64,000 nucleotides of DNA. Source: Verrucomicrobiota bacterium. Its GTDB lineage: Bacteria; Verrucomicrobiota; Verrucomicrobiia; Methylacidiphilales; JBCCWR01. Both the position numbers and the translations under genes were made by a program. Positions within the stretch are counted from its first letter, which is position 1, and every line of letters begins with the position of its first letter. Positions 43,430 to 61,715 of the stretch are shown one piece after another. The notes below the pieces were generated by a model. That model was given only the letters and a program-made list of their open reading frames with translations, had not been told where the DNA came from and made no database searches. Where the stretch lies: NCBI GenBank assembly GCA_039192515.1, contig JBCCXA010000010.1, positions 11,126 through 75,125 of the forward strand, read 5' to 3'.

Positions 43430-43499
43430 ACCTATATTATAGTTGACTAATTAGTCTAAACAAACTTTTTTTAACGCTCTTCTTGTATTATTTGCAATC

Positions 43500-44006: not shown

Positions 44007-44025
44007 GAGCTTAGCAGCAGTAGTC

Positions 44026-45891: not shown

Positions 45892-45956
45892 TTTTCCACC
45901 TTCAAGCTATTTCACACTAGCTAACTTGCATGATCCAGTCATGACATATCCTGTAC

Positions 45957-47072: not shown

Positions 47073-47142
47073 AGTCGCCCTATTATATCCTAAGCTTGCT
47101 TAAGCAACTTTAGTAAAAGTAGAGTTGTAATGAGTCTCGCAC

Positions 47143-48240
47143 TTAACGAACGACCCGGGCAGATCCACCCGCCATCAGCTTTTCCACTTCTTTGAGCGTA
47201 ACCATGGAAGTATCACCTGGTGTAGTCATTGCCAAAGCTCCATGGGCTGCACCATAATTGATTGCTTTAGAAGCATCATTATGGGTTAGGAAGCCATAAA
47301 TTAAACCCGAAGCAAAGCTGTCTCCACCTCCCACTCGATCCAAAATCTCCAATTCAGCTCTGTGAATAGCCTCATAGAAAGTTCCACCATGCCAGCAAAT
47401 AGCTCCCCAATCATTTACCGTAGCAGTCTTCACTGTTCGCAAAGTCGTTGCAGTTGCTTGAAAATTAGGAAAAGTAGAAACAGCTTTTTCTATCATCGCC
47501 TTAAACTTCTCTACATTGATTTGCGAAATGTTTTCATCAAGTCCTTCCACCTCGAAGCCTAGACAAGCCGTAAAGTCCTCTTCATTACCTATCATCACAT
47601 CAACATACTGAGCAATTTCTCGATTAATTTCCTGAGCCTTCTTTTGTCCTCCTATTGAATCCCAAAGAGATGGGCGATAATTCAAATCGTAAGATACAAT
47701 GGTGCCGTATTTTTGCGCTACTTCCACAGCTTCAATAACAACTCCTGGTGTTGTTTCAGAAAGCGCTGCATAGATACCTCCTGTATGAAACCACCGAACC
47801 CCTGCTTTGCCAAAGATTTCCTCCCAATCTATATCTCCCTTCTTTAGTTGCGAAGCTGCGGTGTAACCTCGATCAGGAACTCCTACCGCGCCGCGTATAC
47901 CAAAGCCACGTTCCGTAAAATTCAAACCATTTCGAATAGTTCTCCCAATACCATCATAGGGATACCATTTAATTAAGTCGGTGCAAACTCCACCCTGCAT
48001 AATCAAGTCTTCAATCAAATGCCCTACTTCATTATCAGCGAAGGCTGTTACAACGCCTGTTTTGAGACCAAAACATTTACGCAATCCGCGAGCAACATTA
48101 TATTCGCCTCCACCTTCCCAAGCGCGAAATTCTCTAGCAGTTCGCACCCGTCCTTCTCCTGGATCAAGGCGAAGCATGATTTCTCCCAAAGAAACTAGAT
48201 CAAATTTACATTCTGATGATTCTTTTATTTTTATAGCCAT
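47143..48240 (-). CDS. PfkB-family sugar kinase (2-dehydro-3-deoxygluconokinase-like)
   Basis: DLVSLGEIMLRLDPG and DRVGGGDSFASGLIYG are KdgK-like motifs. Confidence 0.75.
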   Translation of the reverse strand: MAIKIKESSECKFDLVSLGEIMLRLDPGEGRVRTAREFRAWEGGGEYNVARGLRKCFGLKTGVVTAFADNEVGHLIEDLIMQGGVCTDLIKWYPYDGIGRTIRNGLNFTERGFGIRGAVGVPDRGYTAASQLKKGDIDWEEIFGKAGVRWFHTGGIYAALSETTPGVVIEAVEVAQKYGTIVSYDLNYRPSLWDSIGGQKKAQEINREIAQYVDVMIGNEEDFTACLGFEVEGLDENISQINVEKFKAMIEKAVSTFPNFQATATTLRTVKTATVNDWGAICWHGGTFYEAIHRAELEILDRVGGGDSFASGLIYGFLTHNDASKAINYGAAHGALAMTTPGDTSMVTLKEVEKLMAGGSARVVR

Positions 48241-48272
48241 GTATTGTATTCGGTTTAGTGGTCTCTTTACTC

Positions 48273-49364
48273 TTAAATTTCCACGGATTTAAATTTTGCC
48301 ATATCCCATGGTGTTTGCTGACAATCCTCCGCGATATGAGCAAATTCAGTAAGCTCAGCCTCTGTAAATAGAAGCCCTTCATGTTTAGCAGATAGCTGCG
48401 CAGCCTCAGCTTCAATCTGACCAGGAAGCAAACATTTTTCGTTACCCTGCCCAAGAATATCATTTAGTATTGCTCGCACATTCTCTGACTGGTTAAGCCC
48501 GCGCACATAGTCATGTGAATTAATTGCTTCGGGATGAATCACTTGGAAGAAAAAGGTGGAACCACTTTTACTCTCGCTTGTGGAAGCCACTCCACGTTGG
48601 GAAGGCAAACAACCTCCAGTGTAAGCAGAATATAGCTCGTCGACTAACCCAAGGCCATAGCCTTTATGCATACCGAACGGCAGCAGAGCTACAGCTTCAT
48701 CAGGTTCAATAGTGGGATGACCATTCCTATCTACAGCACTATTCGGGGGAAGCTTTTTACTCTCTCTCTTAAATTGCTGCACCCTTCCCATAGCGACGGT
48801 AGAGGTAGCCCAGTCTACGACTATTGGGAAACCTACGGCATCTTGCGTGGGAAAAGCCCAGGAGTGAGGATTTGTTCCCATAGTTGGCCTCTTTCCGCCA
48901 TAAGGAACAACTTCACTAGTTGCCGAAGTGCAGTTGGTATAAGCAATATATCCCTTCAAGGCCGCATCAATCACATAGCCACCTCCCCATAAATAATGTG
49001 TTGCATTCTCTACAGAGACGATACCAACTCCATATTGATCAGCTAGCTTGATACAAGTATCCATAGCCTTGTAAGCGACTGCAGGTCCAAGTTTTTTTTG
49101 AGAATCCCAAACTTCTGAGGCAAGGAACTTATTATCAATTTTCTTTATTTCTGCACCCGGCATCCATTTACCTGCTTTCGATCCAAACAGTTCATCTAGG
49201 TGAAGGGCTTTAATGGCATGGTGCGTTCGAATACCATAGTAAGCGGCGGTTGAACAAAACCTTGCTCCATCTGCGGCTTCATCACTTGTATAACCTCGGT
49301 GAATATAAGCTGCTTCTACAAGCTTATTATGCACCTCCTCCGGAACGACATAATAGGTCATCAT
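48273..49364 (-). CDS. Ldh_2-family (malate/L-lactate/sulfolactate-type) dehydrogenase
   Basis: 363 aa with YGIRTHH, GTNPHSWAFP and HKGYGLG motifs of the Ldh_2 family. Confidence 0.7.
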   Translation of the reverse strand: MMTYYVVPEEVHNKLVEAAYIHRGYTSDEAADGARFCSTAAYYGIRTHHAIKALHLDELFGSKAGKWMPGAEIKKIDNKFLASEVWDSQKKLGPAVAYKAMDTCIKLADQYGVGIVSVENATHYLWGGGYVIDAALKGYIAYTNCTSATSEVVPYGGKRPTMGTNPHSWAFPTQDAVGFPIVVDWATSTVAMGRVQQFKRESKKLPPNSAVDRNGHPTIEPDEAVALLPFGMHKGYGLGLVDELYSAYTGGCLPSQRGVASTSESKSGSTFFFQVIHPEAINSHDYVRGLNQSENVRAILNDILGQGNEKCLLPGQIEAEAAQLSAKHEGLLFTEAELTEFAHIAEDCQQTPWDMAKFKSVEI

Positions 49365-49366
49365 TT

Positions 49367-50323
49367 TTAAAAAGAATTAGCCTGCGCTAGAGGTTCCCTT
49401 CCTTCTAGCACTGCTATCAAATTTTTTACTGCCATAGTTGCTTGCCGCTCGACGCTCTCCATGGTCCTGGACCCAATGTGAGGAGTAATTACAGCATTTT
49501 CCACTTTTAAAAGTGGATGATCTGTCGGAGGTGGCTCCGCATCTAAGACATCTGCGCCATAGCCTAGAAGCTTTCCCGAGTTGAGGGCCTCCACCATCGC
49601 ACTTGTTTCCACTATTTCACCACGCGCACAATTAAGCACGACCGAGCCATCTTTGAAGAGTTTAAGCCTATTTGAATTGATCATACCACGCGTCTCCTCT
49701 GTAAGCTTTGTATGAATACTCAAAATATCAGAGCGCTTGATTAATTCATCTATGCTTCCCATTTTTTCAATTCCTTGTTTTTGTGTAAATTCTTCGGGCC
49801 AATACGCACCAAAACCCAAGACTTTCATACCAAACGCTTTGGCTCGAATTGCCACTTCCCTTCCTATGCGTCCAAGACCTACTAAACCCATGGTTTTCCC
49901 CATCACCTCATGGCCAGTCATACGCTTCCATCTGCCTTCACTTACATAATTCGCTTCTGTTACAATTTTCCGGTAAACCGCAAAAAGTAACCCGAAGGTG
50001 TGTTCCGCTACAGTCGTATGATTAACACCTGGACAAAAGGTAACTGGCACCTTCAAGTCTGTGGCCGCATCCACATCAACTTTATCAAGACCTATGCCGT
50101 ACTTGGAAATCAACTTAATTTTAGGGAGACTTTTTTCCAGAACACTGCGAGTAATAGCATCATCACCACAGAGAAACGCATCATAGTCCCCTGCAAGTTC
50201 TAACATTTTTTCCTCCGACAAAGGCCCCCGTTCTCGGTGAATCTCATATCCTTTAGATTCTAATAATTCGTGATGGGGACCAGGAGTATCTTGAAAAGAT
50301 GTCGTAGTTAATAAAATTTTCAT
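49367..50323 (-). CDS. D-isomer-specific 2-hydroxyacid dehydrogenase
   Basis: [13 protein letters not shown] (NAD fold), NCARGEIV and ITPHIGS (catalytic His). Confidence 0.85.
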
Positions 50324-50506
50324 CTCTATCTAAACCCTTCTTGATTCAACTTCTATGAGATCACCCGAGTTCAATACATCTCAAGCACCCCTTAGTCGCT
50401 TAGGTGGAATAGAACAAACCTCACAATCACACACCTGTTAGATTTTTCTTTAAAGTGCCATAGGTGTTGAAAGCTGTAAAGGATTTAATAGATTCCCCGC
50501 AAGGGT

Positions 50507-51058
50507 TCAGGCGCTCATTTCAGCATGAGAAAGCTCAAGCTCCTTGCTAATAGTAAATTTGATAATAGTCCCCTGGCCTACCTTGCTCTGAGCAACCCAT
50601 ACTCTACCTTGGTGCTGTTTTACCAGCGTCTCAACAATCGCCAAACCCGCACCAGAACCTTTTATTTTGTTATTATTATGAGCCTTTTTGAATAGAGCAA
50701 AGACCTTTTGCTGCATCTCAGGCTCTATACCTATACCATTATCTATCACAGAAAAGAGATAATATTTTAAATCATCTTCATATTTAATAAGAATTTGAGG
50801 CCTATCTTTATCACAATACTTAATAGCATTCGCTATGAGGTTTTGAAACAAGATGAGAATAGAAGTCTCATGACATGTGATATGAGGTATTTCCTGCACC
50901 TCAATCACGGCACCAGAGTCTTTGATTTGCTTTTCTAATAGTGTTTTAGCTTCGGCAATAAGTCCTGAAAGATCGCAATTGGAAAAGACAATATCCCTAC
51001 GAGCTCTTCGAGATAGGGTGAGAAGATATATACGCACCGAAAGATTTCCAGGACGCAT
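50507..51058 (-). pseudogene. C-terminal fragment of a sensor histidine kinase (end of HisKA helix 2 + HATPase_c; no phospho-acceptor His)
   Basis: N-box FQNLIANAIKYC, G1 VIDNGIGI and G2 GSGAGLAIV. The frame is closed by TAG immediately upstream of the first Met, and no H-box is present. Confidence 0.75.
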
Positions 51059-51066
51059 CTACTTTT

Positions 51067-51630
51067 TTGCGAACTTTAACTACCTCCGAGCAAAAGAAAA
51101 AAATAGAACAGGAGGTGGATGAACTAATCCAAGAATCATCCAAGCCAGCGGAAGCCGCCAATACTAAAAGAACTGATCTCAAGAGAGATATCTATCTAGC
51201 TGAAGACTTAGCGATGCGAGAGATTGAACAAGAATTTGAAGTTAAAACGAATAGACAGGTTGCGTTCGGCTCCATGGATGCAGGTATCGACGGCATGTTT
51301 GCCAAGAACGGAAAAGGTTATGGAATCGAAGTGAAATTTGTCTGTAATACCCTCTCCAGAAATGTTATCAATCAGGCTGCAGGAATAGGAAATCAGCTAT
51401 TTGAAAGGTATGGATGGAAGAACTTTGATATGATTATCGCAGTTGTCCTCGACAATCAGAATCCAGTAGAGGTCCAAAAGCAGAGGAACCAAATACAGGA
51501 ACTAGTTAATGAAAAAGGTGATGGCTATCATTGTCGAGTTTACGAGTATGGCGAGCTTCTCAAAAAATGCGGCATCGATAAAAATGGATATAGATCTTTC
51601 AAAGTCTATAGAAGAATTAGAAGGAGATGA
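51067..51630 (+). CDS. Hypothetical protein with PD-(D/E)xK (Mrr-like) nuclease-type motif; possible orphan toxin domain
   Basis: REIEQEFE..SMDAGIDGMF-x9-YGIEVKF fits E..D..(E)xK. The start is uncertain (TTG 51067, GTG 51115 or ATG 51213). The 3' end overlaps the next ORF by 47 nt. Confidence 0.45.
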   Translation: MRTLTTSEQKKKIEQEVDELIQESSKPAEAANTKRTDLKRDIYLAEDLAMREIEQEFEVKTNRQVAFGSMDAGIDGMFAKNGKGYGIEVKFVCNTLSRNVINQAAGIGNQLFERYGWKNFDMIIAVVLDNQNPVEVQKQRNQIQELVNEKGDGYHCRVYEYGELLKKCGIDKNGYRSFKVYRRIRRR

Positions 51631-52096
51631 TTGGGGTCCACCTGATTTTGATTCTCATGTTGTTAGCACGTGCCATGAGTTACGTAAAAAGCCAATCAAA
51701 GATTTTGAGATAGAAGAACTGCGATTCATGATATTACAGAACGTAGGATCTGAATATTTAGCTCCATTAGCTTGCGTAGACCACGACCCTATAGACCAGT
51801 GGGCACCCGTGCATGATTATTTAGTCTACTATAGCTTATGCCTACACATCGGACCAGAGAACGAAGAAGGAGCAGATTTGTTTTATGTAGATATTGCGAC
51901 TCCACAGGCCATAAAACACTTTCAGTTGGGCAAAACCGTTTCGGATAAAAGCATTATTTTGAATCCCTATTCATGGCCGGAGGTATTAACCAGAGTAAAG
52001 AGAATGATTAATCATGTTTCGGGCGTGTCCTGGCAGCAAGTGGCAGAGGAATTAGACAAAAGTTTTAGTTGGGAATTTAGTGGTTATCCGTCATAA
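51584..52096 (+). CDS. Chimeric immunity protein: CdiI-like N-terminal half fused to an Imm8-like domain
   Basis: IEELEGDDWGPPDFDSHVVSTCHELRKKPIKDFEIEELRFMILQNVGSEYLAPLA matches my recollection of the CDI-immunity family. LHIGPENEEGADLFYVDIATP..WQQVAEELDKSFSWEFSGY matches the Imm8 pattern. ATG 51584 is chosen over 51509. Confidence 0.6.
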   Translation: MDIDLSKSIEELEGDDWGPPDFDSHVVSTCHELRKKPIKDFEIEELRFMILQNVGSEYLAPLACVDHDPIDQWAPVHDYLVYYSLCLHIGPENEEGADLFYVDIATPQAIKHFQLGKTVSDKSIILNPYSWPEVLTRVKRMINHVSGVSWQQVAEELDKSFSWEFSGYPS

Positions 52097-52101
52097 AGAT
52101 A

Positions 52102-52168
52102 CAGAACAAGCCAGTTGAGCTAATCTGCAAAACGCGTTGCGTTTTTTGATTAGCTTTTAGATCGCCTC
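52102..52168 (+). repeat. attC-like site 1 (degenerate R')
   Basis: R'' CAGAAC is at 52103-52108. Arms are GAGCTAATC / GATTAGCT with an inner hairpin AAAACGC-gtt-GCGTTTT. ATC (52162-52164) sits where GTT is expected, and the site may double as a terminator. Confidence 0.55.
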
Positions 52169-52219
52169 CTACCCTATAATATTTAAAACACCGTGAGCAG
52201 TTAGCTCACTTCTAACGAT

Positions 52220-52555
52220 ATGAATACAGAAGAGGAAGATCAGTCAGCACATGTAGCCGGCTTCATCACGTTTTCCGGATCAATTCCAGAATTGAGAGCG
52301 ATGATCCGTGATGCTGGTCTCACACCTTCGAAGGCAGATTCGCACCATATTCACATTGAAGAGTTTTCTCACGTCATGCTGAGAGAGTACTCGAAGTTTG
52401 AGTATATGATCGAAGCAGATGCAGATACACCAGATGAGATGGTTGAAGATATGAAGAGATTCTCTTCAGCGCTATCTGCTGAAAGAATTGGATACAACTA
52501 TGAAATCTATGATTCTTCAAATGAGCTAGTTTGCCAGAAGGAGGAGAAGTTTTGA
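52220..52555 (+). CDS. Cassette ORF, hypothetical acidic protein
   Basis: 111-aa ORF bounded by attC-like sites 1 and 2. No family was recognised. Confidence 0.55.
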   Translation: MNTEEEDQSAHVAGFITFSGSIPELRAMIRDAGLTPSKADSHHIHIEEFSHVMLREYSKFEYMIEADADTPDEMVEDMKRFSSALSAERIGYNYEIYDSSNELVCQKEEKF

Positions 52556-52556
52556 A

Positions 52557-52631
52557 TCATATCAAGGCAGAGCTCACAATGGCTACTCATCGCTTCGCTC
52601 TTCGCAGCCACGTGAGTCTTTGACGTTAACC
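52557..52631 (+). repeat. attC site 2
   Basis: The R''-like box is CATATCAAGGCAG (ATC for AAC). Arms are CTCAC..TGGCT / AGCCA..GTGAG. R' GTTAACC is at 52625-52631. Confidence 0.65.
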
Positions 52632-52649
52632 ATACGAGAAAGTACGCGC

Positions 52650-53408
52650 ATGGACGAAATTGAAAAAATTATAAGTCGATATAATGAAGAATATGTAGGC
52701 AAGAGCCTAGAATCGTTAGATGATATAAATAGGTTCACTGGTACTTTCGTAAAGGATGTAGCAGAGATTTATGATTGCATCACGAGAATGCGAAACATCG
52801 ATCGCAACCCAACTGGATTCAATCTAGACGATGCTCCTATTTTGGGGCTGTTAACCAGAATATGGAAACTACTCAAAGAAATCGTTATCTACTACGAAAA
52901 AGATAACGCTGAAATCATAAGTATATTAGAAAGACCACTGATAGAAGCGGCAGTTACGGCTGAATATTTACTAATGAGCGATTCTGCTGTTATTAAAGAC
53001 TATAGAAAATGCTCATATAAAGATCGATTAAGAATACTCCGAGAATTAAAAGAAGGTTCTAGGTTTTTCGAAACAAAGGCCGGAAAACGGTTGCTCAAAT
53101 CAGTTCAAGAGAAAATGGATTTAGAAGGTTTCTCTGAAGACGACTTCAAGAAACAAAAGAAAAATCGATGGAAGCTTCAAGGAAAAACTTTCTTCGACAT
53201 ATTCGGAGAGGTTACAGACGAAGACCTTTACAAGTACACTTATGGCATGATGTCTGAGTCTATTCATGGATCTTGGAACGAATCTATGGATTGGTGCCTC
53301 CAAAAAAACGAAGATTCAACATTCACAGTTTATCCGTTCTATCATGGAGCTGATGTTAGATATATATGCCCAACACTAAAGTTTTGCAATGAGTCATACA
53401 GACTTTGA
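52650..53408 (+). pseudogene. Cassette gene (possibly DUF5677-like) truncated by an in-frame TGA
   Basis: ATG 52650 lies 25 nt after R' GTT. After TGA (53406-53408) the same frame stays open for 38 more codons (LKRIDCEDENMVNVLNWIERVNTRIFMIFDQKYDGPNG) and ends at TAA 53523-53525 inside the R'' box of attC 3. Confidence 0.6.
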
Positions 53409-53519
53409 CTAAAACGAATTGATTGCGAGGATGAGAACATGGTCAATGTCCTCAATTGGATTGAAAGAGTTAATACGAGAATATTTATGATTTTTGACCA
53501 AAAATACGATGGGCCAAAT

Positions 53520-53597
53520 GGCTAACAAAGCCAGCCAGAGGGACCAAAAAACCGCCGCGTCGCTCTGGTTTTTCGGCCCCTGCTGGCAGCGTTCGGG
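53520..53597 (+). repeat. attC site 3
   Basis: R'' GCTAAC is at 53521-53526. Arms are GCCAGCcAGaGGGaCCaAAAAACC / GGTTTTTcGGCCCCTGCTGGC. R' GTTCGGG is at 53591-53597. Confidence 0.8.
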
Positions 53598-53605
53598 GAT
53601 AAAAT

Positions 53606-54028
53606 ATGAAAGCTGATCAGCGCATATTTGGTGAAATCTATGATGAAAGCAAATCTCATCGTATAACATTAGTATATGATGAAACATCACGTGGCGGGTA
53701 TGATTTCCTTAGGATAGACTGGCATACCCTAAGAGACAATGAATGGCGTATTCATCATACATTATCGCAGGATGCCTTCTCAAAGAATTCCAATGAACAA
53801 ATATGGGTTAGTGACATTCATAGTTTTGATCCTGAGACCGCTAACTGTATTCTGAAAATTGCAGAGGGAGAAAAACAATTAGATGTAGGACATATTTCGT
53901 ATATCTATTCTTGGAGAATTTGGGATATTAAAGATAACAAAGAAGTAAAGCTAATTAAGGTGTGCGAGAACATATGGGAGGGACCCATACTATTAGAAAA
54001 AGTAGAGCACACCGAACATGCCAGTTGA
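53606..54028 (+). CDS. Cassette ORF, hypothetical protein
   Basis: 140 aa with ATG 15 nt after R' GTT and the stop inside the next attC. No family was recognised. Confidence 0.6.
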   Translation: MKADQRIFGEIYDESKSHRITLVYDETSRGGYDFLRIDWHTLRDNEWRIHHTLSQDAFSKNSNEQIWVSDIHSFDPETANCILKIAEGEKQLDVGHISYIYSWRIWDIKDNKEVKLIKVCENIWEGPILLEKVEHTEHAS

Positions 54029-54135
54029 CAAAATGGCTCATACTCCGCGCTGTGATTTATCAGTATGAAAGATGAACTTCAACCCGTGAGATTTATCTGA
54101 TATTATCAGAGCCATTTCTCACTTTTACGTTCGGT
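54012..54135 (+). repeat. attC site 4 (long, ~124 bp)
   Basis: R'' CCGAAC is at 54012-54017. Arms are GTtGAcAAAATGGCTC (54024-54039) / GAGCCATTTCTCAC (54109-54122). R' GTTCGGT is at 54129-54135. Confidence 0.8.
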
Positions 54136-54151
54136 AGAAGAATAGAAAATT

Positions 54152-54892
54152 ATGAAAATTAAACTCGCAGCAGTCGGCATGTTTTTTTTGTCGTTATCGT
54201 GTTTTGCTCAAAGTGAGGCTATCAAGACAGAGGACGCGGACGCGAAAATTATTGCGGAAGTGCTCGGACAGAAGATCACCGCTGCCGAAAAGGACAATCT
54301 CCAGGGGTTGATCTTTGGAGCTCTATTACAGGAGTTTGCGAAGGAAAATAAGATCGAGCCCACAGAGGCGGAACTGGACGCCTTCATCGTGCAGACCCAG
54401 AAGCAAGAGAAGCGAAATCAAGTAGAATTCGAAGCAGATCGGGAAAGACTGCGGCGAGAGCTGAGGTCTACCGACCTCTCGGATGAAGAGCGGGAGGATA
54501 AGGAATCTCAACTCCAGACGGTTGAGAGCATTCTGAAGGCCAATCGCGAGACAAAAAGAATGACGAAAGGGATGGAAGCAGAGATGCACTCCATGATGTG
54601 CCAAATGGCGCAACAGTTTGTCAACTCGTGGAAGATCAACAAGGCCCTATACGAAGAATACGGAGGTCGAATCATCTTTCAGCAGGCTGGAGTTGAGCCA
54701 CTGGATGCATATCGGGATTTTCTGAGGAAGAAGGAGGAGCAGGGAGCATTTCAGATCCTCGATGAGAGCCACAGGGCACAGTTCTGGAATTACTTTACGA
54801 ATGACAACATGCATACTTTCTACGACAAAAACGACGGAGCGAAATTTATACATACCCCTTGGTGGATGGTGGACAAATCACCAGAAGAATAA
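54152..54892 (+). CDS. Cassette ORF, secreted coiled-coil-rich protein
   Basis: Signal peptide MKIKLAAVGMFFLSLSCFAQSEA. Codon usage is visibly more G+C-rich than in neighbouring cassettes. Confidence 0.6.
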   Translation: MKIKLAAVGMFFLSLSCFAQSEAIKTEDADAKIIAEVLGQKITAAEKDNLQGLIFGALLQEFAKENKIEPTEAELDAFIVQTQKQEKRNQVEFEADRERLRRELRSTDLSDEEREDKESQLQTVESILKANRETKRMTKGMEAEMHSMMCQMAQQFVNSWKINKALYEEYGGRIIFQQAGVEPLDAYRDFLRKKEEQGAFQILDESHRAQFWNYFTNDNMHTFYDKNDGAKFIHTPWWMVDKSPEE

Positions 54893-54896
54893 AATC

Positions 54897-54952
54897 ACCG
54901 AACAAGACAGTGGTGGCAACGGCTAAGGCCGTGCCACACTTCGAAGTTCGCT
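54897..54952 (+). repeat. attC site 5 (short family)
   Basis: R'' CCGAAC ends at 54903. Arms are GTGgTGGCAaCGGC (54910-54923) / GCCGTGCCACAC (54928-54939) with two bulged bases. R' GTTCGCT is at 54946-54952. Confidence 0.85.
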
Positions 54953-54958
54953 AATAAA

Positions 54959-55330
54959 ATGGCCCTGATCTTTAAATTGGAATGCGATAAGTGTGATTTC
55001 ACCGTAGGTCCTACTGGTGGAGGACACCTTTACGTTACTCTAGATGATGGAAGCCGTAAGCCTTTACCTCATCCGGCTGAATTTTCGACAGCATTAGATG
55101 CAACTGGTAAAGAGTTACCAGAGTTACAGAAGGAAAAGCGAATTGGCAGTGAACTCCAGTATCTTTGTTTAGCATGTGGCCATGATTTATATCTCGATCC
55201 GAGCAAAGATGTTTTAGTTTGTCCTGTTTGTACGTCTGATAACCTCATCGACATGCAGAAAGTTAAAAAGAAAGCCTGCCCAAAATGTAAGGAAGGCCAT
55301 CTAAGGCAAGAACACATAGGTATTTCATGA
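54959..55330 (+). CDS. Cassette ORF, double zinc-ribbon protein
   Basis: 123 aa with four CxxC pairs: CDKC, CLAC, CPVC and CPKC. Confidence 0.6.
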   Translation: MALIFKLECDKCDFTVGPTGGGHLYVTLDDGSRKPLPHPAEFSTALDATGKELPELQKEKRIGSELQYLCLACGHDLYLDPSKDVLVCPVCTSDNLIDMQKVKKKACPKCKEGHLRQEHIGIS

Positions 55331-55340
55331 ATGTAATAAA

Positions 55341-55406
55341 AGCGAACAATCCGATACATCGAATTCACTCCCTGCGGTCGTTCTTGGCTGATCGGTGACG
55401 TTAGTC
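55341..55406 (+). repeat. attC site 6
   Basis: R'' GCGAAC is at 55342-55347 and R' GTTAGTC at 55400-55406. The 27-nt core AATTCACTCCCTGCGGTCGTTCTTGGC (55362-55388) is identical to that of site 10. Confidence 0.8.
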
Positions 55407-55413
55407 AGAATAA

Positions 55414-55938
55414 ATGAAATCAATCATACCATCCAAGGAAGAGTGTTTCTACATCCTCGAAATGTTGGAGTCCTCACTGATTGATTTCAGCTACACTCAT
55501 CCTTGGGCTGACCGAATAATCGGATTGATTGACATACCCCCATCTTGGCTCTGCGACGTCTCTACAAAAAAATACACTGGAGACCAAAAGAAAGCATTTA
55601 GGGAATATGTCTTCAGTGAGCCATTTGAAGAAACACCAGTTGATATTGATAAATTCCACGTCGGGTGTCTTTGGATTAGATACGAAAGAAGAGAATTGTC
55701 TTGGGCTTCCTTCCTTCAACTGTCAGGCGAGTATCTCGACGCTGCGGGGGGAGACTGGGATTGCGAAACCCCATACCACTACCTCAATACTATTGAAGAT
55801 GCCTATTTCAGCTACGAATCCGAGGAGCGCACAAAGGCATTATATCTTAAAGATCATGATGTGTTGCCATGGGCGAATCTAGCAAAACAGAAACTCGAAC
55901 CTTTTTTAGAAACACGAATGACTAACAAGGCAGGATAG
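55414..55938 (+). CDS. Cassette ORF, hypothetical protein
   Basis: 174 aa with ATG 14 nt after GTT and the stop inside attC 7. No family was recognised. Confidence 0.6.
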   Translation: MKSIIPSKEECFYILEMLESSLIDFSYTHPWADRIIGLIDIPPSWLCDVSTKKYTGDQKKAFREYVFSEPFEETPVDIDKFHVGCLWIRYERRELSWASFLQLSGEYLDAAGGDWDCETPYHYLNTIEDAYFSYESEERTKALYLKDHDVLPWANLAKQKLEPFLETRMTNKAG

Positions 55939-55974
55939 GCAACGCCTTTGGCGCGCCTACCTTTGACGTTCGGG
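55920..55974 (+). repeat. attC site 7 (short family)
   Basis: R'' ACTAAC is at 55921-55926. Arms are GGaTAGGCaaCGC / GCGCGCCTACC. R' GTTCGGG is at 55968-55974. Confidence 0.8.
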
Positions 55975-55992
55975 CAATAGAATATTTCAAGA

Positions 55993-56361
55993 ATGAATCC
56001 TGATTTAAATTTCTTTTTTATGCTATTGATTAGTTCGGTATTCATTTTCTTCAGTTACAGAATTATCAAAAGGCACATGCTCAATATTGAGCTAGATAAA
56101 CATCTAAATGATAAAAATTATGTAGTTCATGAGATTACTTCTTATGTGTGTCTGAGAGACGAAGATGTCCCAAAAAGTTTATTAGATTTTTACTATTCTC
56201 AGTATCCCAGAATTATGAGATGGCACAGCCAGTGGCACATGATATACAGAGTAACGATATTAGATAGTAATTCGTCACCAGAATATAGGTGGTATTATCT
56301 TGATTCTAGAGCTTCAAAGCATAATCGTATTAAAGAATTAAAACCCGAACCTGGCAGTTGA
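55993..56361 (+). CDS. Cassette ORF, N-terminally membrane-anchored hypothetical protein
   Basis: 122 aa with the TM helix FFFMLLISSVFIFFSY. The stop lies inside attC 8. Confidence 0.55.
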   Translation: MNPDLNFFFMLLISSVFIFFSYRIIKRHMLNIELDKHLNDKNYVVHEITSYVCLRDEDVPKSLLDFYYSQYPRIMRWHSQWHMIYRVTILDSNSSPEYRWYYLDSRASKHNRIKELKPEPGS

Positions 56362-56411
56362 CCTAATCGCGTACCCTAGCGGGTTCGCTCCAGGTCACTT
56401 TTACGTTCGCT
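56344..56411 (+). repeat. attC site 8 (TACCCTAGCGGGTT-core family)
   Basis: R'' CCGAAC is at 56345-56350. Arms are GTtGACCT / AGGTCAC around the core TACCCTAGCGGGTTCGC. R' GTTCGCT is at 56405-56411. Confidence 0.8.
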
Positions 56412-56419
56412 GAATAAAT

Positions 56420-56797
56420 ATGAGTTTGATCTTAGATTGGCTGACCCTGAGCTCGAAAGTGATCGATTCGCTTGAGGAAGCGTTAAGAAGCTACGAACCT
56501 GATCAAGTCGAACTCAACGCTATCGCTTGGCAGATCGCGGAACTAAAGAAGGTAAATGAAAAAGTTAAAAAAGATGGATTCTTCGACTCAAGTTACACCG
56601 AAGCTTACCTGATCAAAGCTACATCTCGGGAACATCTGAATATTCAAACCGCGATATTAGAAGAATTAGGCTACCTATTCGATATAGCTCAAAGAGCTGT
56701 TCGATTAGGCCCCTCGAAGGCAAATGACATTCTTAAGATTAAACAGAGCGAACAAGGCGGTGAGCTCAATTCCGAGAGGCTGCGCTCCTCGTCTTGA
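56420..56797 (+). CDS. Cassette ORF, hypothetical helical protein
   Basis: 125 aa. The C-terminal 16 residues (EQGGELNSERLRSSS) are encoded by attC 9. Confidence 0.55.
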   Translation: MSLILDWLTLSSKVIDSLEEALRSYEPDQVELNAIAWQIAELKKVNEKVKKDGFFDSSYTEAYLIKATSREHLNIQTAILEELGYLFDIAQRAVRLGPSKANDILKIKQSEQGGELNSERLRSSS

Positions 56798-56815
56798 GCT
56801 ACCTTAGCGTTCGCT
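56747..56815 (+). repeat. attC site 9
   Basis: R'' GCGAAC is at 56748-56753. Arms are GGTgAGCTCAA / CTTGAGCTACC. R' GTTCGCT is at 56809-56815. Confidence 0.8.
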
Positions 56816-56818
56816 GAA

Positions 56819-57088
56819 ATGAAAAAACCTCCCACAGAGATAGATGGAGCTAAGGTTATTGAGTGGGCCTGGTCTGGAGATACCCCATTTGGCCTAGTGC
56901 CAGGAGCTGAACCCCCTGAGATATATGGATTGGCGATAGCTACCTACGACAACCAATCATACTACCGTTTTTCGTGCGATAGCGATTGGCATACTACTCA
57001 AGACAGTGTGTATGACTCTATTGAAAAAGCTAAGTCCTTGTTACCTAAGCAGTATTGCGATGTTGAAGCATTCTGGAGAAAATCATAA
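56819..57088 (+). CDS. Cassette ORF, small hypothetical protein
   Basis: 89 aa with ATG 10 nt after GTT. No family was recognised. Confidence 0.55.
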   Translation: MKKPPTEIDGAKVIEWAWSGDTPFGLVPGAEPPEIYGLAIATYDNQSYYRFSCDSDWHTTQDSVYDSIEKAKSLLPKQYCDVEAFWRKS

Positions 57089-57094
57089 AATATT

Positions 57095-57160
57095 AGCGAA
57101 CAAACACGTAGTGCCAATTCACTCCCTGCGGTCGTTCTTGGCACACGCTTAACGTTCGAC
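57095..57160 (+). repeat. attC site 10
   Basis: R'' GCGAAC is at 57096-57101. Arms are CGTaGTGCCAA / TTGGCACACG. The core (57116-57142) is identical to that of site 6. R' GTTCGAC is at 57154-57160. Confidence 0.85.
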
Positions 57161-57168
57161 AGAAATTT

Positions 57169-57687
57169 ATGAAAAAGAAACTAACTCTACTCGCACTTGC
57201 TCTCATACCTACTGCTTGCCTACTCGGAAAGACCATATCCCTCGATGGAGGGAGTGTAGCATTCGATGCACCGGATGAATTCACTCCAGTGCCTCAAGAG
57301 ATAATTGACATAAAGTATCCCTCTTCGAGAGCCCCGAAGTATGTGATTGGGAATAAGTCTGCAGCTACGACGATTGCCTATGATATTAAACCGCACTCAA
57401 TTCCTCAGCACAAAATTGAGGAAGCTAGAAAGTCATTCAGAGATTTGTTTCCTCGCATAATTCCAGGACTTCAGTGGAAAGAGAATAAAGTAATCACACT
57501 AGCAGGACAAAAGTGGGGATACATGGAAATGACATCGACTGCTATCGATACGAATATTTACAATATCATGCTCTTTACAGGATACAAAGGTAAGATGTTG
57601 GTCTTCAATTTCAACTCAATAAGAGAGGAGTTCCCGAAATACGAAAAAGCCCTCAGGGATTCTCTAAATTCGATTGAAATCAAATAG
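57169..57687 (+). CDS. Cassette ORF, secreted DcrB/DUF1795-like protein
   Basis: Signal peptide MKKKLTLLALALIPTACLLG. The family assignment is tentative, based on overall pattern only. Confidence 0.5.
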   Translation: MKKKLTLLALALIPTACLLGKTISLDGGSVAFDAPDEFTPVPQEIIDIKYPSSRAPKYVIGNKSAATTIAYDIKPHSIPQHKIEEARKSFRDLFPRIIPGLQWKENKVITLAGQKWGYMEMTSTAIDTNIYNIMLFTGYKGKMLVFNFNSIREEFPKYEKALRDSLNSIEIK

Positions 57688-57727
57688 TCGAACAAGACGT
57701 GTGAGGCAACGAGCGCAAGCGTTCGTC
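57688..57727 (+). repeat. attC site 11, internally deleted (3' arm missing)
   Basis: TCGAAC-AAGACGTGTGAGGCAACGAGC-GCAAGC-GTTCGTC keeps R'', the L''-like arm and R' (57721-57727), but no complementary 3' arm. It is only ~40 bp long. Confidence 0.5.
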
Positions 57728-57737
57728 GAAATATTAA

Positions 57738-58024
57738 ATGGCATTACAAGTTTATATTTCAGATCCTAAAGGTGGACTTGAGAAACATCAGATCTTACCT
57801 GAGCTATCTCATGAACAACATCAAGAGTTATTTTCAAACTCAAAGATGAGTATTCAGACATATCTTATTCCCACCAGGAGCTAGAAGCTCTTGTTTCAGA
57901 GATAGAACATGCAACTATGAATTTCGATATGACATCACCCGTAAAAGCGTTTTTGAGCCCTTTTCATTCATTATCTGTTATTGCTCTGACTAGGGAGAAG
58001 AATATAGTATTAATCTCAGATTAA
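57738..58024 (+). pseudogene. Cassette gene disrupted by a frameshift
   Basis: The frame from ATG 57738 gives 48 aa and ends at TAG 57882-57884. A second frame is open from 57815 to TAA 58022-58024 (..HQELEALVSEIEHATMNFDMTSPVKAFLSPFHSLSVIALTREKNIVLISD) and stops right before attC 12. One indel in the 57815-57884 overlap would join them. Confidence 0.6.
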
Positions 58025-58030
58025 ATTAGA

Positions 58031-58100
58031 GACGAACATGACAGTTTACCAAATACGTTTACCCTAGCGGGTTTCGCTTTTGGTGACTTCGACATTCTGC
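58031..58100 (+). repeat. attC site 12 (TACCCTAGCGGGTT-core family, mutated R')
   Basis: R'' ACGAAC is at 58032-58037. Arms are GTtTACCAAAtACG / CGCTTTTGGTGAC. ATT (58094-58096) replaces GTT. Confidence 0.65.
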
Positions 58101-58186
58101 AAAAAAGTCATCGACCATGAAAAATCTCGAATATTTAAACACAGAGAGTAAACAAACCTTGCGAGAAGGAATATCCGAGTTGCGGC

Positions 58187-58654
58187 ATGCCGAAGGCGCC
58201 GGAACTTCTGAATGACATGGATGCCCACGATGCAATCCATGTGCTTTTCGGCTGCCCAACGAACTTGGCAGGTGAGATCGTTGCACATATTTGGACTGCT
58301 TTCGGAACGACCGTATCAATAAAGGATATGCGCCGGGTCAACCAACACCGCGATCACAGGCAAGTATTGGAACAGATTGGGCATCGAAAATTATTTCTTA
58401 CATGGATTCGCAGTCTGCCGCGAATCCTCAAGGTGATCATCCGCACAAAGAAGATGAAGTCGCGTTGGCCTGTGGAAGAGGTTGATGCATTCGCTGACCG
58501 ACCTCTCGACGAATTGCGAAAGGAATTCTCGATCAGGCTCATTCCTTTCGATCCAGGGGAAGGCGGATCAGGAGGTGCAGCACTCCGAAACTTGAATCGT
58601 AAGACAGAACAAGGCAGTGGACTCAACGCGCTGCCGCGCGTGAGTCACTTTTAA
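58187..58654 (+). CDS. Cassette ORF, Coq4-like HDxxH protein (possibly frameshifted at the 5' end)
   Basis: DAHDAIHVLFGCPTNLAGEIVAHIW resembles the Coq4-family HDxxH-x(10-13)-E metal motif. A 32-codon frame from ATG 58117 overlaps out of frame. The C-terminal 16 residues are encoded by attC 13. Confidence 0.55.
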   Translation: MPKAPELLNDMDAHDAIHVLFGCPTNLAGEIVAHIWTAFGTTVSIKDMRRVNQHRDHRQVLEQIGHRKLFLTWIRSLPRILKVIIRTKKMKSRWPVEEVDAFADRPLDELRKEFSIRLIPFDPGEGGSGGAALRNLNRKTEQGSGLNALPRVSHF

Positions 58655-58662
58655 AGTTCGCC
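58604..58662 (+). repeat. attC site 13 (short family)
   Basis: R'' CAGAAC ends at 58610. Arms are GTGgACTCAaCGCG (58617-58630) / CGCGTGAGTCAC (58637-58648). R' GTTCGCC is at 58656-58662. Confidence 0.85.
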
Positions 58663-58667
58663 ACAAA

Positions 58668-59141
58668 ATGAACCATTTTCTACTACCTGTCCTTATCGTC
58701 ATATCGGTCTTCACTGGAGTTTGTTGTGCCGAAGGCTTAGCCCCAACAAATCTCACTGTGATAGTTTGTGATTCTACCAACAAGGTTTTGGATACTGTTA
58801 TTGTTCCGGACGACAAGAAGTCCAGATCAGTGAAATTTACTCTACCTGAGGGAACAGACGAGATTCGAGTTTTCGCACTCGGAAAGCGTCAGCACAAAGA
58901 CATGCAGACAGGCTACTATATCACCGGCCGACCTGATGATAAGAAGTGGATGGGGTTGGGCTACGTCGAGGCGCATGTCGAGAAAGGCGTTTTGACCGGA
59001 ATCGATGGTAACGGATTCGGACAGATCAAAATTGACAAGAATCTCAAGAAGCAAGTCTTGACCGACATCAAAGTTGGGACGACGGCCACGATCACAACCG
59101 TAATAATCAATGGCGAACAAGGCAGTGGTGGCAACGGCTAA
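58668..59141 (+). CDS. Cassette ORF, secreted hypothetical protein
   Basis: Signal peptide MNHFLLPVLIVISVFTGVCCAEG. The C-terminal EQGSGGNG is encoded by attC 14. Confidence 0.6.
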   Translation: MNHFLLPVLIVISVFTGVCCAEGLAPTNLTVIVCDSTNKVLDTVIVPDDKKSRSVKFTLPEGTDEIRVFALGKRQHKDMQTGYYITGRPDDKKWMGLGYVEAHVEKGVLTGIDGNGFGQIKIDKNLKKQVLTDIKVGTTATITTVIINGEQGSGGNG

Positions 59142-59167
59142 CGCCGCGCCACACTTTGACCTTAAAT
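59112..59167 (+). repeat. attC site 14 (short family, mutated R')
   Basis: R'' GCGAAC is at 59113-59118. The 5' arm GTGGTGGCAACGGC is identical to that of site 5. CTT (59161-59163) replaces GTT. Confidence 0.7.
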
Positions 59168-59597
59168 GTCCACTCAGGAATAGACTATAAGCCAAGATAA
59201 AGTAATAAAAATACTTGCAATAGCAAATATAATCTCTCTGCCTGTTGTTGTAGTTCTGAGTTTCTATCTTGATTCTTCTTTGCCGCCATTACTTGTAGAC
59301 TTCTTGGAGCAAGAAATGGAACGAGAAAATACCAATGTAGAATTGGTAGTTAGTTTTCTTACAATTCCGGTTTTATTAGTTCATCTTGTAGCACTATTCG
59401 GAGTTCTGCTATTCAAACAGTGAGCACGTATTCCTCTACTATTTACAAGCATACTATTTTATGTGCTTACTCCTTTTTTAGGGCCCTACGTGGATCACGG
59501 TATTTCGGCGACATTAGATAGTTTATCTTCGTTTATGCTGGGGGCGCTGTTAGTGCTATTGTTTTTCGGAGAATCAACATTTAACAAGTTAAGCTAG
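59166..59597 (+). pseudogene. Cassette gene for a ~4-TM membrane protein with two in-frame stop codons
   Basis: Hand translation gives one frame: MSTQE-TAG(59181)-TISQDKVIKILAIANIISLPVVVVLSFYL..LVALFGVLLFKQ-TGA(59421)-ARIPLLFTSILFYVLTPFLG..LGALLVLLFFGESTFNKLS-TAG(59595). It is absent from the ORF track because each piece is shorter than 60 aa from a start codon. Confidence 0.65.
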
Positions 59598-59637
59598 CAG
59601 GACGCCGCAAGCGGCGCCTCTGCTTAAAGCGTTATCT
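59579..59637 (+). repeat. attC site 15 (short family)
   Basis: R'' TTTAAC is at 59580-59585. Arms are TTAAGCtAGcAGGaCGCCGC (59589-59608) / GCGGCGCCTCTGCTTAA (59611-59627), which pair perfectly once the 3 bulged bases are removed. R' GTTATCT is at 59631-59637. Confidence 0.85.
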
Positions 59638-59642
59638 GATAA

Positions 59643-60098
59643 ATGTCATATATCCTGACAAAACAAAGAAATGCCAACGTCAAAGCTGCATTTGAAAAAT
59701 ATGCTTTGTATTTAAAAGAAAATGAAAGGTCATTCCCCAAGGGTGCATATGAACTTGCTACTAGTGATTGGTGGTTTAATTTTAATAATCACAGATGTCC
59801 ACATGACTCTTGGTTAGAGAAATTTGAGATTATGGAACACAGCCAAGGCGAGAGGAATGAGATAAGGTGGTCAAACATCGTTATTACTCTACTAGGCGCT
59901 TATCATGACTCTCTGCTTACCATTGAATATTCAGCAGTTTGCAATTATAGACTAGAGTGTGATTCAGGACATGGAGATTGGCTTTTTGACCAGTTTCTGT
60001 GTTCGGATGATGGCGATGTCATACATGAAATTGAGTGGTCTAGATCTCACTGGATAATTCACTGCAAAGATATTGAGTTTAGCTATAAGAAAATTTAA
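59643..60098 (+). CDS. Cassette ORF, hypothetical cytoplasmic protein (immunity-protein-like architecture)
   Basis: 151 aa with ATG 12 nt after GTT. The family is not securely recognised. Confidence 0.55.
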   Translation: MSYILTKQRNANVKAAFEKYALYLKENERSFPKGAYELATSDWWFNFNNHRCPHDSWLEKFEIMEHSQGERNEIRWSNIVITLLGAYHDSLLTIEYSAVCNYRLECDSGHGDWLFDQFLCSDDGDVIHEIEWSRSHWIIHCKDIEFSYKKI

Positions 60099-60167
60099 GA
60101 TAATAAGTCAGTTCACCAAATGCGCTTACCCTGGCGGGTTTCGCTTTTGGTGACTTCAAGCTTAGAG
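60098..60167 (+). repeat. attC site 16 (TACCCTGGCGGGTT-core family, both R boxes mutated)
   Basis: GATAAT (60099-60104) replaces xxGAAC. Arms are GTtCACCAAAtGCG / CGCTTTTGGTGAC. CTT (60161-60163) replaces GTT. Confidence 0.6.
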
Positions 60168-60179
60168 TAATATAAAAAC

Positions 60180-60596
60180 ATGAGTTATTTCATGACAGCG
60201 ATTGGTGAAAAACCAATTATTGAAGGAATTGAAACTAAATCAATTGACGATTCTCAGGATTATCTTAAAAACTTAAAGCCTTATTTTTCTGAAACGTATC
60301 AGGATGAAAGAGTATGGGTCTTAGAGTACTTCGATAAAGATTATAATGATTTTATTTCACTCTCTGAAAGCACATTTCATGAAACACAAGACTTTGAAGC
60401 AACACTTTTATATAAAACCGTAAAGTCTCTGGAACAGAATCAAAACTCTTTCCACATTTGGTGGGCTAGCAACAACTCTCACACCGATGTAGAAGAAGTC
60501 AGTACTTTTGAAGAAGCAATTGAACTAATCAAAGAGCAAATTAACAGAGCTGAAGAAATCGGTATAAGGGCAACTCTAACAAACGGATCAACCTAA
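60180..60596 (+). CDS. Cassette ORF, hypothetical acidic protein
   Basis: 138 aa and very AT-rich. The stop lies inside attC 17. Confidence 0.55.
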   Translation: MSYFMTAIGEKPIIEGIETKSIDDSQDYLKNLKPYFSETYQDERVWVLEYFDKDYNDFISLSESTFHETQDFEATLLYKTVKSLEQNQNSFHIWWASNNSHTDVEEVSTFEEAIELIKEQINRAEEIGIRATLTNGST

Positions 60597-60649
60597 TAGC
60601 ATCCATTCGCTACGCTCATTCCAGCTATAGGTTATCTAGGACGTTAGGT
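60573..60649 (+). repeat. attC site 17
   Basis: R'' CTCTAAC is at 60574-60580. Arms are GATcAACCTAaTAGC / GCTATAGGTTATC. R' GTTAGGT at 60643-60649 matches the canonical GTTRRRY. Confidence 0.85.
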
Positions 60650-60666
60650 CAAAAAAAGGAAAATAT

Positions 60667-60930
60667 ATGATTAAATTTAAAGACTTTGTTCCAAAAGAAG
60701 TAACTAAAGCTGGATTCTTTAGCTCAGCAAGATTGGAAGAATTAAATGATTCTTTAAAAAGAGCTAATATTTGGATTGAAAATCAAAACATAAACGTTCT
60801 TAACATAGAAACTGTTGTTTTACCAAATATTCATAGGTCATCAGAAGAAGGATCTACTGACACAGATATTACAACTTCTGGGGACATGTCATCAAATTGG
60901 CATCAATTTATTAGGGTTTGGTACAAGTAA
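60667..60930 (+). CDS. Cassette ORF, small hypothetical protein
   Basis: 87 aa with the RBS-like AAAGGAAAATATATG. No family was recognised. Confidence 0.55.
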   Translation: MIKFKDFVPKEVTKAGFFSSARLEELNDSLKRANIWIENQNINVLNIETVVLPNIHRSSEEGSTDTDITTSGDMSSNWHQFIRVWYK

Positions 60931-60942
60931 AGCACTAAAAAC

Positions 60943-61019
60943 GACCTAACAATTAGATCAACCTAATAGCTTCCACTCGCTGCGCTCGCTCCAGCTATAG
61001 GTTATCTAGGACGTTCTGT
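60943..61019 (+). repeat. attC site 18 (last in array; near-duplicate of site 17)
   Basis: R'' ACCTAAC is at 60944-60950. CAACCTAATAGC..CCAGCTATAGGTTATCTAGGAC is shared with site 17. R' GTTCTGT is at 61013-61019. Confidence 0.85.
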
Positions 61020-61119
61020 GAAAAAAGAATTACCAGATAGAGTTATTAGTCACCTTAACAGAGGCGATCCCGCCAAAGAAAAATCATCCCTTTCTTCTCA
61101 GATACTACTCATATGAAAA

Positions 61120-61350
61120 TTAACGGGACAGCAATGCTTCGCAAGTAACAGTAAATCCACGAACTCCCGTTTCCATATCTATGATAATCTTTAAGATGTA
61201 ATTAGCATCCGAAATAACTTTGTGGGTGTGAGCAACCCATTTAGCAGAATCATTCAGCCTATTAATGACCAGGTAGCTTGTAGCTGCTACGGCTAATAGG
61301 ATGGCCATCATGGCAGTATAACCGGTGACTATTTGGTGCTGTAATTTCAC
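61120..61350 (-). pseudogene. N-terminal fragment of a CHASE3-domain sensor protein
   Basis: KLQHQIVTGYTAMMAILLAVAATSYLVINRLNDSAKWVAHTHKVISDANYILKIIIDMETGVRGFTVT matches the start of CHASE3 (TM helix, W-V-x-H-T, ETGxRG[YF]). It then diverges (CEALLSR) and stops after 76 codons. Confidence 0.7.
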
Positions 61351-61478: not shown

Positions 61479-61715
61479 CTAGTTATCAAACCACTGTTTT
61501 GCGCGAATCGCCAAAATCAAAAGCCCCGCTATCACTAAGCTCCAGAATAAGGTTTTTCCGAACAACGATTTAAGCTCACTACCTACTTTTAAAAAATCAT
61601 CTGCCAAACGGCCTACATTTCCACCCTTTTTAGAAAAGAAATGCAAGACTCTCCATGACATCCAGATCAAGATCCCAAGTATGAGAATTATTTTAATGAG
61701 AAGCCCCATCAGCAC
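61479..61715 (-). CDS. Small two-TM membrane protein
   Basis: 78 aa with two hydrophobic helices. No family was recognised. Confidence 0.45.
   Translation of the reverse strand: MLMGLLIKIILILGILIWMSWRVLHFFSKKGGNVGRLADDFLKVGSELKSLFGKTLFWSLVIAGLLILAIRAKQWFDN

Follow-up and report, generated by a model that had tools for sequence, protein, structure and literature searches.

Two ends of a CHASE3 sensor histidine kinase flank an integrase-less cassette array in an uncultured Verrucomicrobiota bacterium: a probable case of one disrupted gene

Clusters of attC sites lacking an integron-integrase (CALIN) are common, though their origins are mostly unknown, and a contig from an uncultured Verrucomicrobiota bacterium raises the question of how such an array came to lie between what appear to be the two ends of one sensor histidine kinase gene. 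In the window analysed (a stretch of 64,000 nt, positions 11,126 to 75,125 of contig JBCCXA010000010.1, from the metagenome-assembled genome (MAG) GCA_039192515.1 of the order Methylacidiphilales), 18 attC sites and ~18 cassettes, most of them encoding ORFans, extend over ~10 kb, all on the plus strand, between a C-terminal kinase fragment on the left and an N-terminal kinase fragment on the right, and these host-gene stubs serve as a footprint. The observation of two kinase ends around an attC array is real and well beyond chance. It is probable that a single kinase gene was broken by this integrase-less cassette array and lost its middle part; the one-gene origin and the order and nature of the events are what we infer from the comparisons presented here.

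Two ends of a kinase on either side of the array

Regarding the left fragment, its 183-residue translation contains a HATPase_c domain (Pfam E 1.9e-23, residues 65-172) in which the N box (QNLIANAIKY), the G1 box (DNGIGI) and the G2 box (GSGAGLAIV) are all legible, no Pfam match to HisKA was obtained in these 183 residues, and a TAG codon stands immediately 5' of the first Met of the open reading frame (ORF). Homology to full-length kinases begins at 51025-51043 on this side (BLAST, and tblastn with five full-length kinases), and the phospho-accepting His is absent, the alignment to the kinase P0122 beginning at residue 286, past the H-box of that protein (SHDLQEP, ~243). The right fragment of 76 residues covers positions 2-35 of the 138 positions of the CHASE3 profile (Pfam E 6.3e-8), that is, only the beginning of the domain; a full HMMER scan of 1.84e9 proteins returned 1510 matches to it, essentially all of them to an N-terminal transmembrane (TM) helix followed by the start of CHASE3, and the alignments to CHASE3 proteins stop at query residues 68-73. 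On the minus strand the two fragments are correctly ordered from N to C terminus, and the cut end of each coincides exactly with an array boundary. Split in this manner the gene cannot function as a kinase, both ends being non-functional stubs. Neither GC content nor GC content at third codon positions distinguishes the kinase fragments, the array and the flanks.

Three full-length TM-CHASE3-HisKA-HATPase_c proteins are matched by the N-terminal and the C-terminal fragment alike, at ends that do not overlap. In P0355 (508 aa) the N-terminal fragment aligns to residues 1-69 (47% identity, from Met1 of both) and the C-terminal fragment to residues 336-495 (39%); the corresponding ranges are 14-77 and 286-451 in P0122 (452 aa), and 14-74 and 298-444 in P0132 (447 aa). 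Compared with these intact kinases, the fragments align to both ends of the architecture, whereas the gene here is split and would lack about 200-250 residues (0.6-0.75 kb), comprising ~100 CHASE3 positions, the second TM helix or linker, and the H-box. No remnant of this middle part was detected in any frame within the window by lenient tblastn with eight full-length kinases. The two fragments probably once formed one kinase gene, a view that draws on architecture, order, orientation and parsimony, not on demonstration. The sequence-only reading from which this work started had described the left flank as the end of a HisKA helix and a full HATPase_c behind a TAG codon, the right flank as a TM helix and the start of a CHASE3 domain with subsequent loss of similarity, and the lost middle as a few hundred residues, all of which agrees with the matches, boxes and alignment ends given above; it had also proposed that both fragments should hit the same full-length CHASE3 kinase at non-overlapping ranges, and BLASTP bears this out at the level of homologues (39-47% identity for P0355).

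The 183-aa ORF is regarded as a fragment and not as a stand-alone gene type because HATPase-only members of this kinase subfamily elsewhere are tails of split kinases. All three HATPase-only homologues examined (L124, L125 and L126; 164-205 aa, on long contigs) are tails of frameshift-split kinases with the front half directly upstream, and an autonomous HATPase-only gene family was rejected on these grounds. At these three loci a PAS/HisKA ORF overlaps the HATPase-only ORF or lies adjacent to it upstream, and a response regulator follows downstream. The possibility that the C-terminal fragment is itself a cassette was likewise rejected, no R-box/L-box pattern being present at 50324-50506, downstream of the kinase stop codon.

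Directly upstream of the kinase start, at 61479-61715 on the minus strand, lies a gene for a protein of 76-78 aa with two TM helices, divergent from the neighbouring ABC-F gene. This small membrane protein belongs to no Pfam family, none of the fetched loci encodes a relative of it, and it may have been co-transcribed with the kinase.

An array without an integrase

Every sizeable ORF between the kinase fragments is encoded on the plus strand, with attC sites in between (Table 1). The sites are 42-126 nt long, against ~55-140 nt expected of an attC with inverted R'' (RYYYAAC) and R' (GTTRRRY) core sites, and share the arrangement of an R'' box (nCGAAC or CTAAC), AAG, an L'' arm, an L' arm and an R' box (GTTCGn or GTTAGn); they were called by their R'' and R' boxes together with bottom-strand folds rather than with the IntegronFinder covariance model. 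Clustering is tight, with 18 sites from 52101 to 61018 and a largest gap of ~1 kb, against a threshold of at least two sites spaced by less than 4 kb. The bottom strands of six sites were folded and compared with shuffled sequences, and the classical hairpin with paired R boxes, unpaired spacers and paired L boxes was obtained in four of them (a05, z -4.06; a03, z -3.3; a09, z -2.71; a10, z -2.2); in a13 (z -2.7) the R boxes are unpaired in the energy-minimum fold, and the fold of a18 is weak (z -0.8). The GTT of the R' box is canonical in 14 of the 18 sites and degenerate in a01 (GAT), a12 (CAT), a14 (CTT) and a16 (CTT), and R'' is degenerate in two sites. Three pairs are near-duplicates, namely a05/a14 (91% over 46 nt), a12/a16 (88%) and a17/a18 (86%). 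The array looks like a decaying, integrase-less relic, because four R' boxes lack the GTT needed for cleavage and a DUF5677 cassette gene carries a nonsense codon.

Genes encoding an integron integrase were not detected in the 51 kb to the left of the array or in the 5.9 kb to its right, the latter distance being reached with contig L041 of an independent Logan assembly of the sequencing run SRR22824305, which extends 2.9 kb past the window and there encodes only an FAD/NAD-binding protein, a 102-aa ORF and a YkuD protein. No tyrosine recombinase is encoded by the ORFs of 150 aa or more near the array, those within 4 kb on either side all having other Pfam identities, and a tblastn search of the window and L041 for IntI-like sequences or pseudogenes, with an approximate IntI1 query, gave no hit (best E value about 6). 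In place of the intI, attI and Pc of a complete integron, the C-terminal kinase fragment directly abuts cassette 1. The IntegronFinder definition of a CALIN asks for at least two attC sites less than 4 kb apart and for an intI-free distance of 4 kb, or of 10 kb in a relaxed form that could be followed on the right as far as 5.9 kb; by this definition the array is a CALIN.

As in other CALINs, the attC sites are clustered, there is no intI within 4 kb and no recognisable intI pseudogene nearby, as is reported for 95% of CALINs (Cury et al., 2016; PMC4889954), and the cassette genes are mostly of unknown function. It differs from them in its size, 18 attC sites placing it in the top few percent (more than 10 sites are found in only 6.6% of CALINs; Cury et al., 2016), in its origin from an uncultured Verrucomicrobiota MAG, and in being flanked by stubs of apparently one gene. 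With the sedentary chromosomal integron arrays of Vibrio and Xanthomonas it shares its length, a common R-box consensus, near-duplicate attC sites, a richness in ORFans and a pair of toxin/immunity type, whereas intI, attI and Pc are missing, several R' boxes are degenerate, and the array lies inside a disrupted gene with no conserved housekeeping anchor. The element is of a known type and fairly ordinary, though well preserved; size, host phylum and a clean entry footprint make it distinctive, and it does not point to a new mechanism.

Table 1. Positions in the window of the kinase fragments, junction features, attC sites and two cassette features.
Feature	Position	Strand	Remarks
C-terminal kinase fragment, 183 aa	50507..51058	-	End of HisKA helix 2 and complete HATPase_c, no H-box; NCBI annotation 'ATP-binding protein'
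Left junction zone	51026..51068		Kinase homology fades (tblastn starts 51025-51043, fading to 51058); exact breakpoint unplaceable
Cassette 1	51067..52162	+	Overlapping ORFs: ORFan (51067-51630) and Imm8/CdiI_3 immunity-type (51584-52096)
GCGAAC hexamer (51069-51074) with 8-nt arms	51069..51118		Inverted repeat I12; arms CTACCTCC (51080-87) and GGAGGTGG (51111-18)
attC a01	52101..52166	+	R'' ACAGAAC; R' GATCGCC (GAT, not GTT)
attC a02	52556..52630	+	R'' degenerate
DUF5677 cassette gene	52620..53524	+	In-frame TGA at 53406-53408
attC a03	53518..53597	+	Folded
attC a04	54010..54135	+	126 nt
attC a05	54896..54952	+	Folded, z -4.06
attC a06	55340..55406	+	Repeat D4
attC a07	55918..55974	+	Logan contig L001 ends within
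attC a08	56343..56411	+	R boxes
attC a09	56746..56815	+	Folded, z -2.71
attC a10	57094..57160	+	Folded
attC a11	57686..57727	+	Short, 42 nt
attC a12	58030..58099	+	R' degenerate, CATTCTG; repeat D5
attC a13	58603..58662	+	Folded
attC a14	59111..59166	+	R' degenerate, CCTTAAA; repeat D6
attC a15	59577..59636	+	R boxes
attC a16	60098..60166	+	R'' and R' both degenerate; repeat D5
attC a17	60572..60648	+	Repeat D3
attC a18, last	60942..61018	+	Folded; R' GTTCTG; 86% to a17 over 81 nt, including ~8 nt beyond R'
Right spacer, ~107 nt	61019..~61125		Neither attC nor kinase; follows a18
N-terminal kinase fragment, 76 aa	61120..61350	-	TM helix and CHASE3 start; GTG start

Junctions and the course of events

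An insertion by IntI into a genomic site would be recognised on the left by a target G followed by a TTRRRY cassette start and on the right by the G of the last attC directly followed by WT and target sequence. Neither junction is a canonical IntI crossover, and the product of an attC x attG reaction is found at neither of them in a comparison made without the ancestral target sequence. At the left junction, both the G/TTRRRY cassette start and a GTT are absent from the plus strand. At the right junction, the last attC is followed by a spacer which contains stop codons in the kinase frame, has no kinase similarity in any frame and shows no significant fold (z -0.6 to -0.8), and its first ~8 nt resemble the cassette start after a17 (repeat D3); it may represent either the beginning of another, truncated cassette or the original integron flank distal to attI. 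Because ~107 nt that are neither kinase nor attC come after the last attC, the kinase is not regarded as a direct target of IntI. Regarding transposon-like ends, inverted repeats and duplications, a comparison of the junction zones returned only chance 8-9-mers.

The hexamer element at the left junction reads TTAAAGTTCGC on the minus strand, which is identical in 11 of 11 positions to the L'/R' end of a13. A partner R box is lacking in both orientations, and the element folds no better than shuffled sequences on the plus strand (z -0.48, 63 of 200 shuffles being at least as good) or on the minus strand (z -0.15, 221 nt); outside the array, 20 copies of GCGAAC or GTTCGC are present in 54 kb, i.e. 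~0.37 per kb. Being unstructured on both strands, this candidate 'orphan attC' was not counted as an attC site, and it is at most a scrap of one. Of the two junction features named in the sequence-only reading, the unassigned stretch of ~120 bp at 61020-61140 is thus retained in a refined form, shorter and unstructured, and the orphan GCGAAC box with its arms is present as sequence and is not an attC.

The stubs indicate that a gene already present was invaded by the array or its founding element, with a loss of host DNA. The ancestral gene would have had ~450-510 codons for a TM-CHASE3-TM/linker-HisKA-HATPase_c protein and would have been transcribed leftwards, with the small membrane-protein gene on one side of it and the 2-hydroxyacid dehydrogenase operon on the other. 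A segment bearing an integron (intI-attI, cassettes and a short distal flank) would have entered it at about codon 75 in a non-site-specific event; one later deletion across the left boundary would have removed intI and attI, possibly proximal cassettes, and the adjacent ~0.6-0.75 kb of the kinase, and the array, without a local integrase, would now be decaying. Since all 18 attC sites run from R'' to R' on the plus strand, attI and intI are expected at the left end, and since the kinase is read leftwards, codons ~76 to ~290, now lost, would have been located immediately to the left of an insert at codon ~75, so that a single left-boundary deletion would account for the missing intI/attI and the missing kinase middle alike. 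This sequence of entry at ~codon 75 and subsequent left-boundary deletion, which we infer as the one with the fewest steps, is preferred here tentatively, its chances being a little under even. The earlier reading held that the array arrived in a chromosomal gene rather than growing at a resident attI. Entry of the array, or of its platform, into an existing gene is supported; the exclusion of attI is not established, because an integron with intI and attI could have entered the gene and later lost the side on which the kinase sequence is missing.

The best-surviving alternative is an integrase route, which we consider unlikely. An IntI acting in trans would have put one or more cassettes into a GWT attG site within the kinase, the array would have grown by attC x attC recombination without attI, and an imprecise excision, with an attC and a genomic site close by as its end points, would have deleted the kinase middle. 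Both reactions have been shown experimentally in E. coli, where genes were disrupted by attC x attG insertions and segments of the genome were lost on excision at genomic sites nearby (Loot et al., bioRxiv 10.1101/2022.09.11.507474), integration at secondary sites is among the origins of CALINs that have been considered possible (Cury et al., 2016; PMC4889954), and an R-box hexamer with the 11-nt match to a13 lies at the left junction. The route does not predict the spacer, however, the ~107 nt after the last G/TT being non-kinase in any frame, no G/TTRRRY cassette start abuts the kinase on the left, and the left element is unstructured, with a hexamer that is also found at the background frequency given above. 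Like the attC x attG insertions and SALIN described by Loot et al., the present locus has cassette DNA outside attI, a disrupted host gene and a loss of adjacent host DNA; unlike them, it holds an array of 18 attC sites instead of a single cassette, lacks the G/WT signature and includes a 107-nt spacer that is not target sequence. Slightly less probable still is that the array was founded and grew wholly outside an integron platform, by a trans-acting integrase at a GWT site, attC x attC growth and off-site excision of ~0.7 kb; if this were true, the locus would be evidence from nature that large CALINs arise by the attG route and that this route, described in E. coli experiments, remodels host genes across phyla. 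The available results cannot separate integrase-mediated from illegitimate entry.

Several results weigh against a single disrupted gene and the history preferred above. No orthologue above ~46-53% identity was found for the kinase (C-terminal fragment and a chimera of both fragments against 5.8e9 proteins; N-terminal fragment against 1.84e9 proteins with HMMER), the best non-self matches having 46% identity to the C-terminal and ~47-53% to the N-terminal fragment. The homologues that both fragments share at complementary ranges have identities of only 39-47%. The closest matches of the C-terminal fragment (P0002 and P0003) have PAS or TM-only front ends and no CHASE3 domain, many of the best matches of the N-terminal fragment are triple-CHASE3 proteins and not kinases, and CHASE3 N-termini of similar type also head chemoreceptors and other outputs. 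Of traces that would record the proposed entry and deletion (an intI pseudogene, attI, transposon ends, inverted repeats or target duplications), none was found. Regarding synteny, the nearest operons of 2-Hacid_dh, Ldh_2 and PfkB genes, obtained by a scan of genome contigs, have 67-69% identity; genes for dynamin-like GTPases or RsmB precede them, a kinase is absent, and the nearest ABC-F loci, from a metagenome scan, have at most 55% identity and no kinase either. Searches with tblastn for both kinase fragments and the small membrane protein in all 121 ABC-F loci returned nothing outside the source sample, and exact-protein look-ups of the dehydrogenase and ABC-F returned SRR22824305 only, hence no empty-site variants. 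The check for an intact kinase at related loci, proposed in the earlier reading, therefore yielded none among relatives that are 67-69% (dehydrogenase operon) or at most 55% (ABC-F) identical, and the available relatives are too distant for synteny to decide the kinase question. Because neither an orthologue nor a syntenic relative was found, the claim of one gene rests on architecture and parsimony; of the earlier assertion of one disrupted gene, the shared homologues, complementary ends, order and orientation hold, and an orthologue above ~46-53% identity does not exist in the proteins searched.

These results could also be read as two unrelated genes, a histidine kinase on the left and some other CHASE3 protein on the right, with a once complete resident chromosomal integron between them and separate deletions at its ends, each of which truncated one neighbour. 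Among the five top matches of the N-terminal fragment scanned with Pfam, four are triple-CHASE3 proteins without a kinase domain and the fifth is a triple-CHASE3 chemoreceptor (P0235), and only 27 of the ~380 proteins collected for either fragment match both; the PAS or TM-only front ends of the closest C-terminal matches and the distant relatives without a kinase at either flank point in the same direction. Two genes would, however, require two independent truncations leaving exactly complementary, non-overlapping ends whose strand and order agree, as well as two rare gene types beside one array and the loss of the intI/attI end, which makes this explanation improbable.

Both kinase/array junctions were recovered in independent assemblies, a point in favour of a single kinase gene broken by the array. 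The Logan contig L001 corresponds to positions 42295-55957 of the window with 0 mismatches and reproduces the left junction, and L041 covers the right junction, with the last three cassettes, the 76-aa CHASE3 stub, the small membrane protein and ABC-F. Inside the array, by contrast with its junctions, order and length rest on the path of one MAG assembler through similar attC repeats, a further point against the reading. The number and order of cassettes at ~56.0-59.1 kb could deviate from the MAG contig. An artefact joining two attC-bearing loci through such repeats, as might be suspected from the Logan contigs stopping in a07 (55957) and resuming in a14 (59131) and from the likeness of a05 and a14, is very improbable, as the sequence across each kinase/array junction is unique and was recovered by a second assembler too, as a misjoin could alter the length and order of the array and not the stubs abutting cassettes, and as it would have to pair complementary halves of one kinase architecture by a remarkable coincidence.

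Cassette contents and links to Gammaproteobacteria

The majority of cassette proteins have no Pfam family. In cassette 1, the second ORF encodes an immunity-type protein (Pfam Imm8, 7.8e-19; CdiI_3, 3.8e-11), and the ORFan preceding it (187 aa) has no homologue in 5.8e9 proteins or in PDB. By eye only, a PD-(D/E)xK-like motif (DAGIDG...IEVK) is seen in this ORFan. The two ORFs resemble an orphan toxin/immunity pair, which could stabilise the array.

The DUF5677 cassette gene has 86% amino acid identity over 290 aa (78.6% nucleotide identity over 878 nt) to WP_031852475.1 of the Vibrio cholerae plasmid pW6G, a 306-kb plasmid of IncC type on which the gene lies between traN and the gene for an ATP-binding protein, outside any integron. 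A single in-frame TGA stands at the position of a Trp in the Vibrio protein, and conservation persists downstream of it, which looks like cross-phylum transfer with subsequent recent inactivation. The core of the adjoining site a03 (53523-53593) is 95.8% identical over 71 nt to an attC site of the Shewanella phage vB_SspM_M16-3 (MZ568829.1; positions 2501-2571 of the fetched locus L122); the R boxes of the two sites are unlike and the neighbouring ORFs are unrelated. The phage region itself resembles a cassette array, with ~11 small ORFs on the same strand and ATAAC...GTTAT sites between them, and weaker matches to a03 occur in plasmids of Moellerella, Vibrio and Shewanella. Some cassettes are thus common to Gammaproteobacteria at high identity, which implies cross-phylum cassette movement into a poorly sampled lineage of Verrucomicrobiota.

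Two cassettes contain only very small ORFs. The cassette between a14 and a15 (59167-59576, ~410 nt) has two tiny hydrophobic ORFs of 47 and 44 aa, which may encode small membrane peptides or be non-coding, and the cassette at 57723-58029 has a single ORF of 48 aa.

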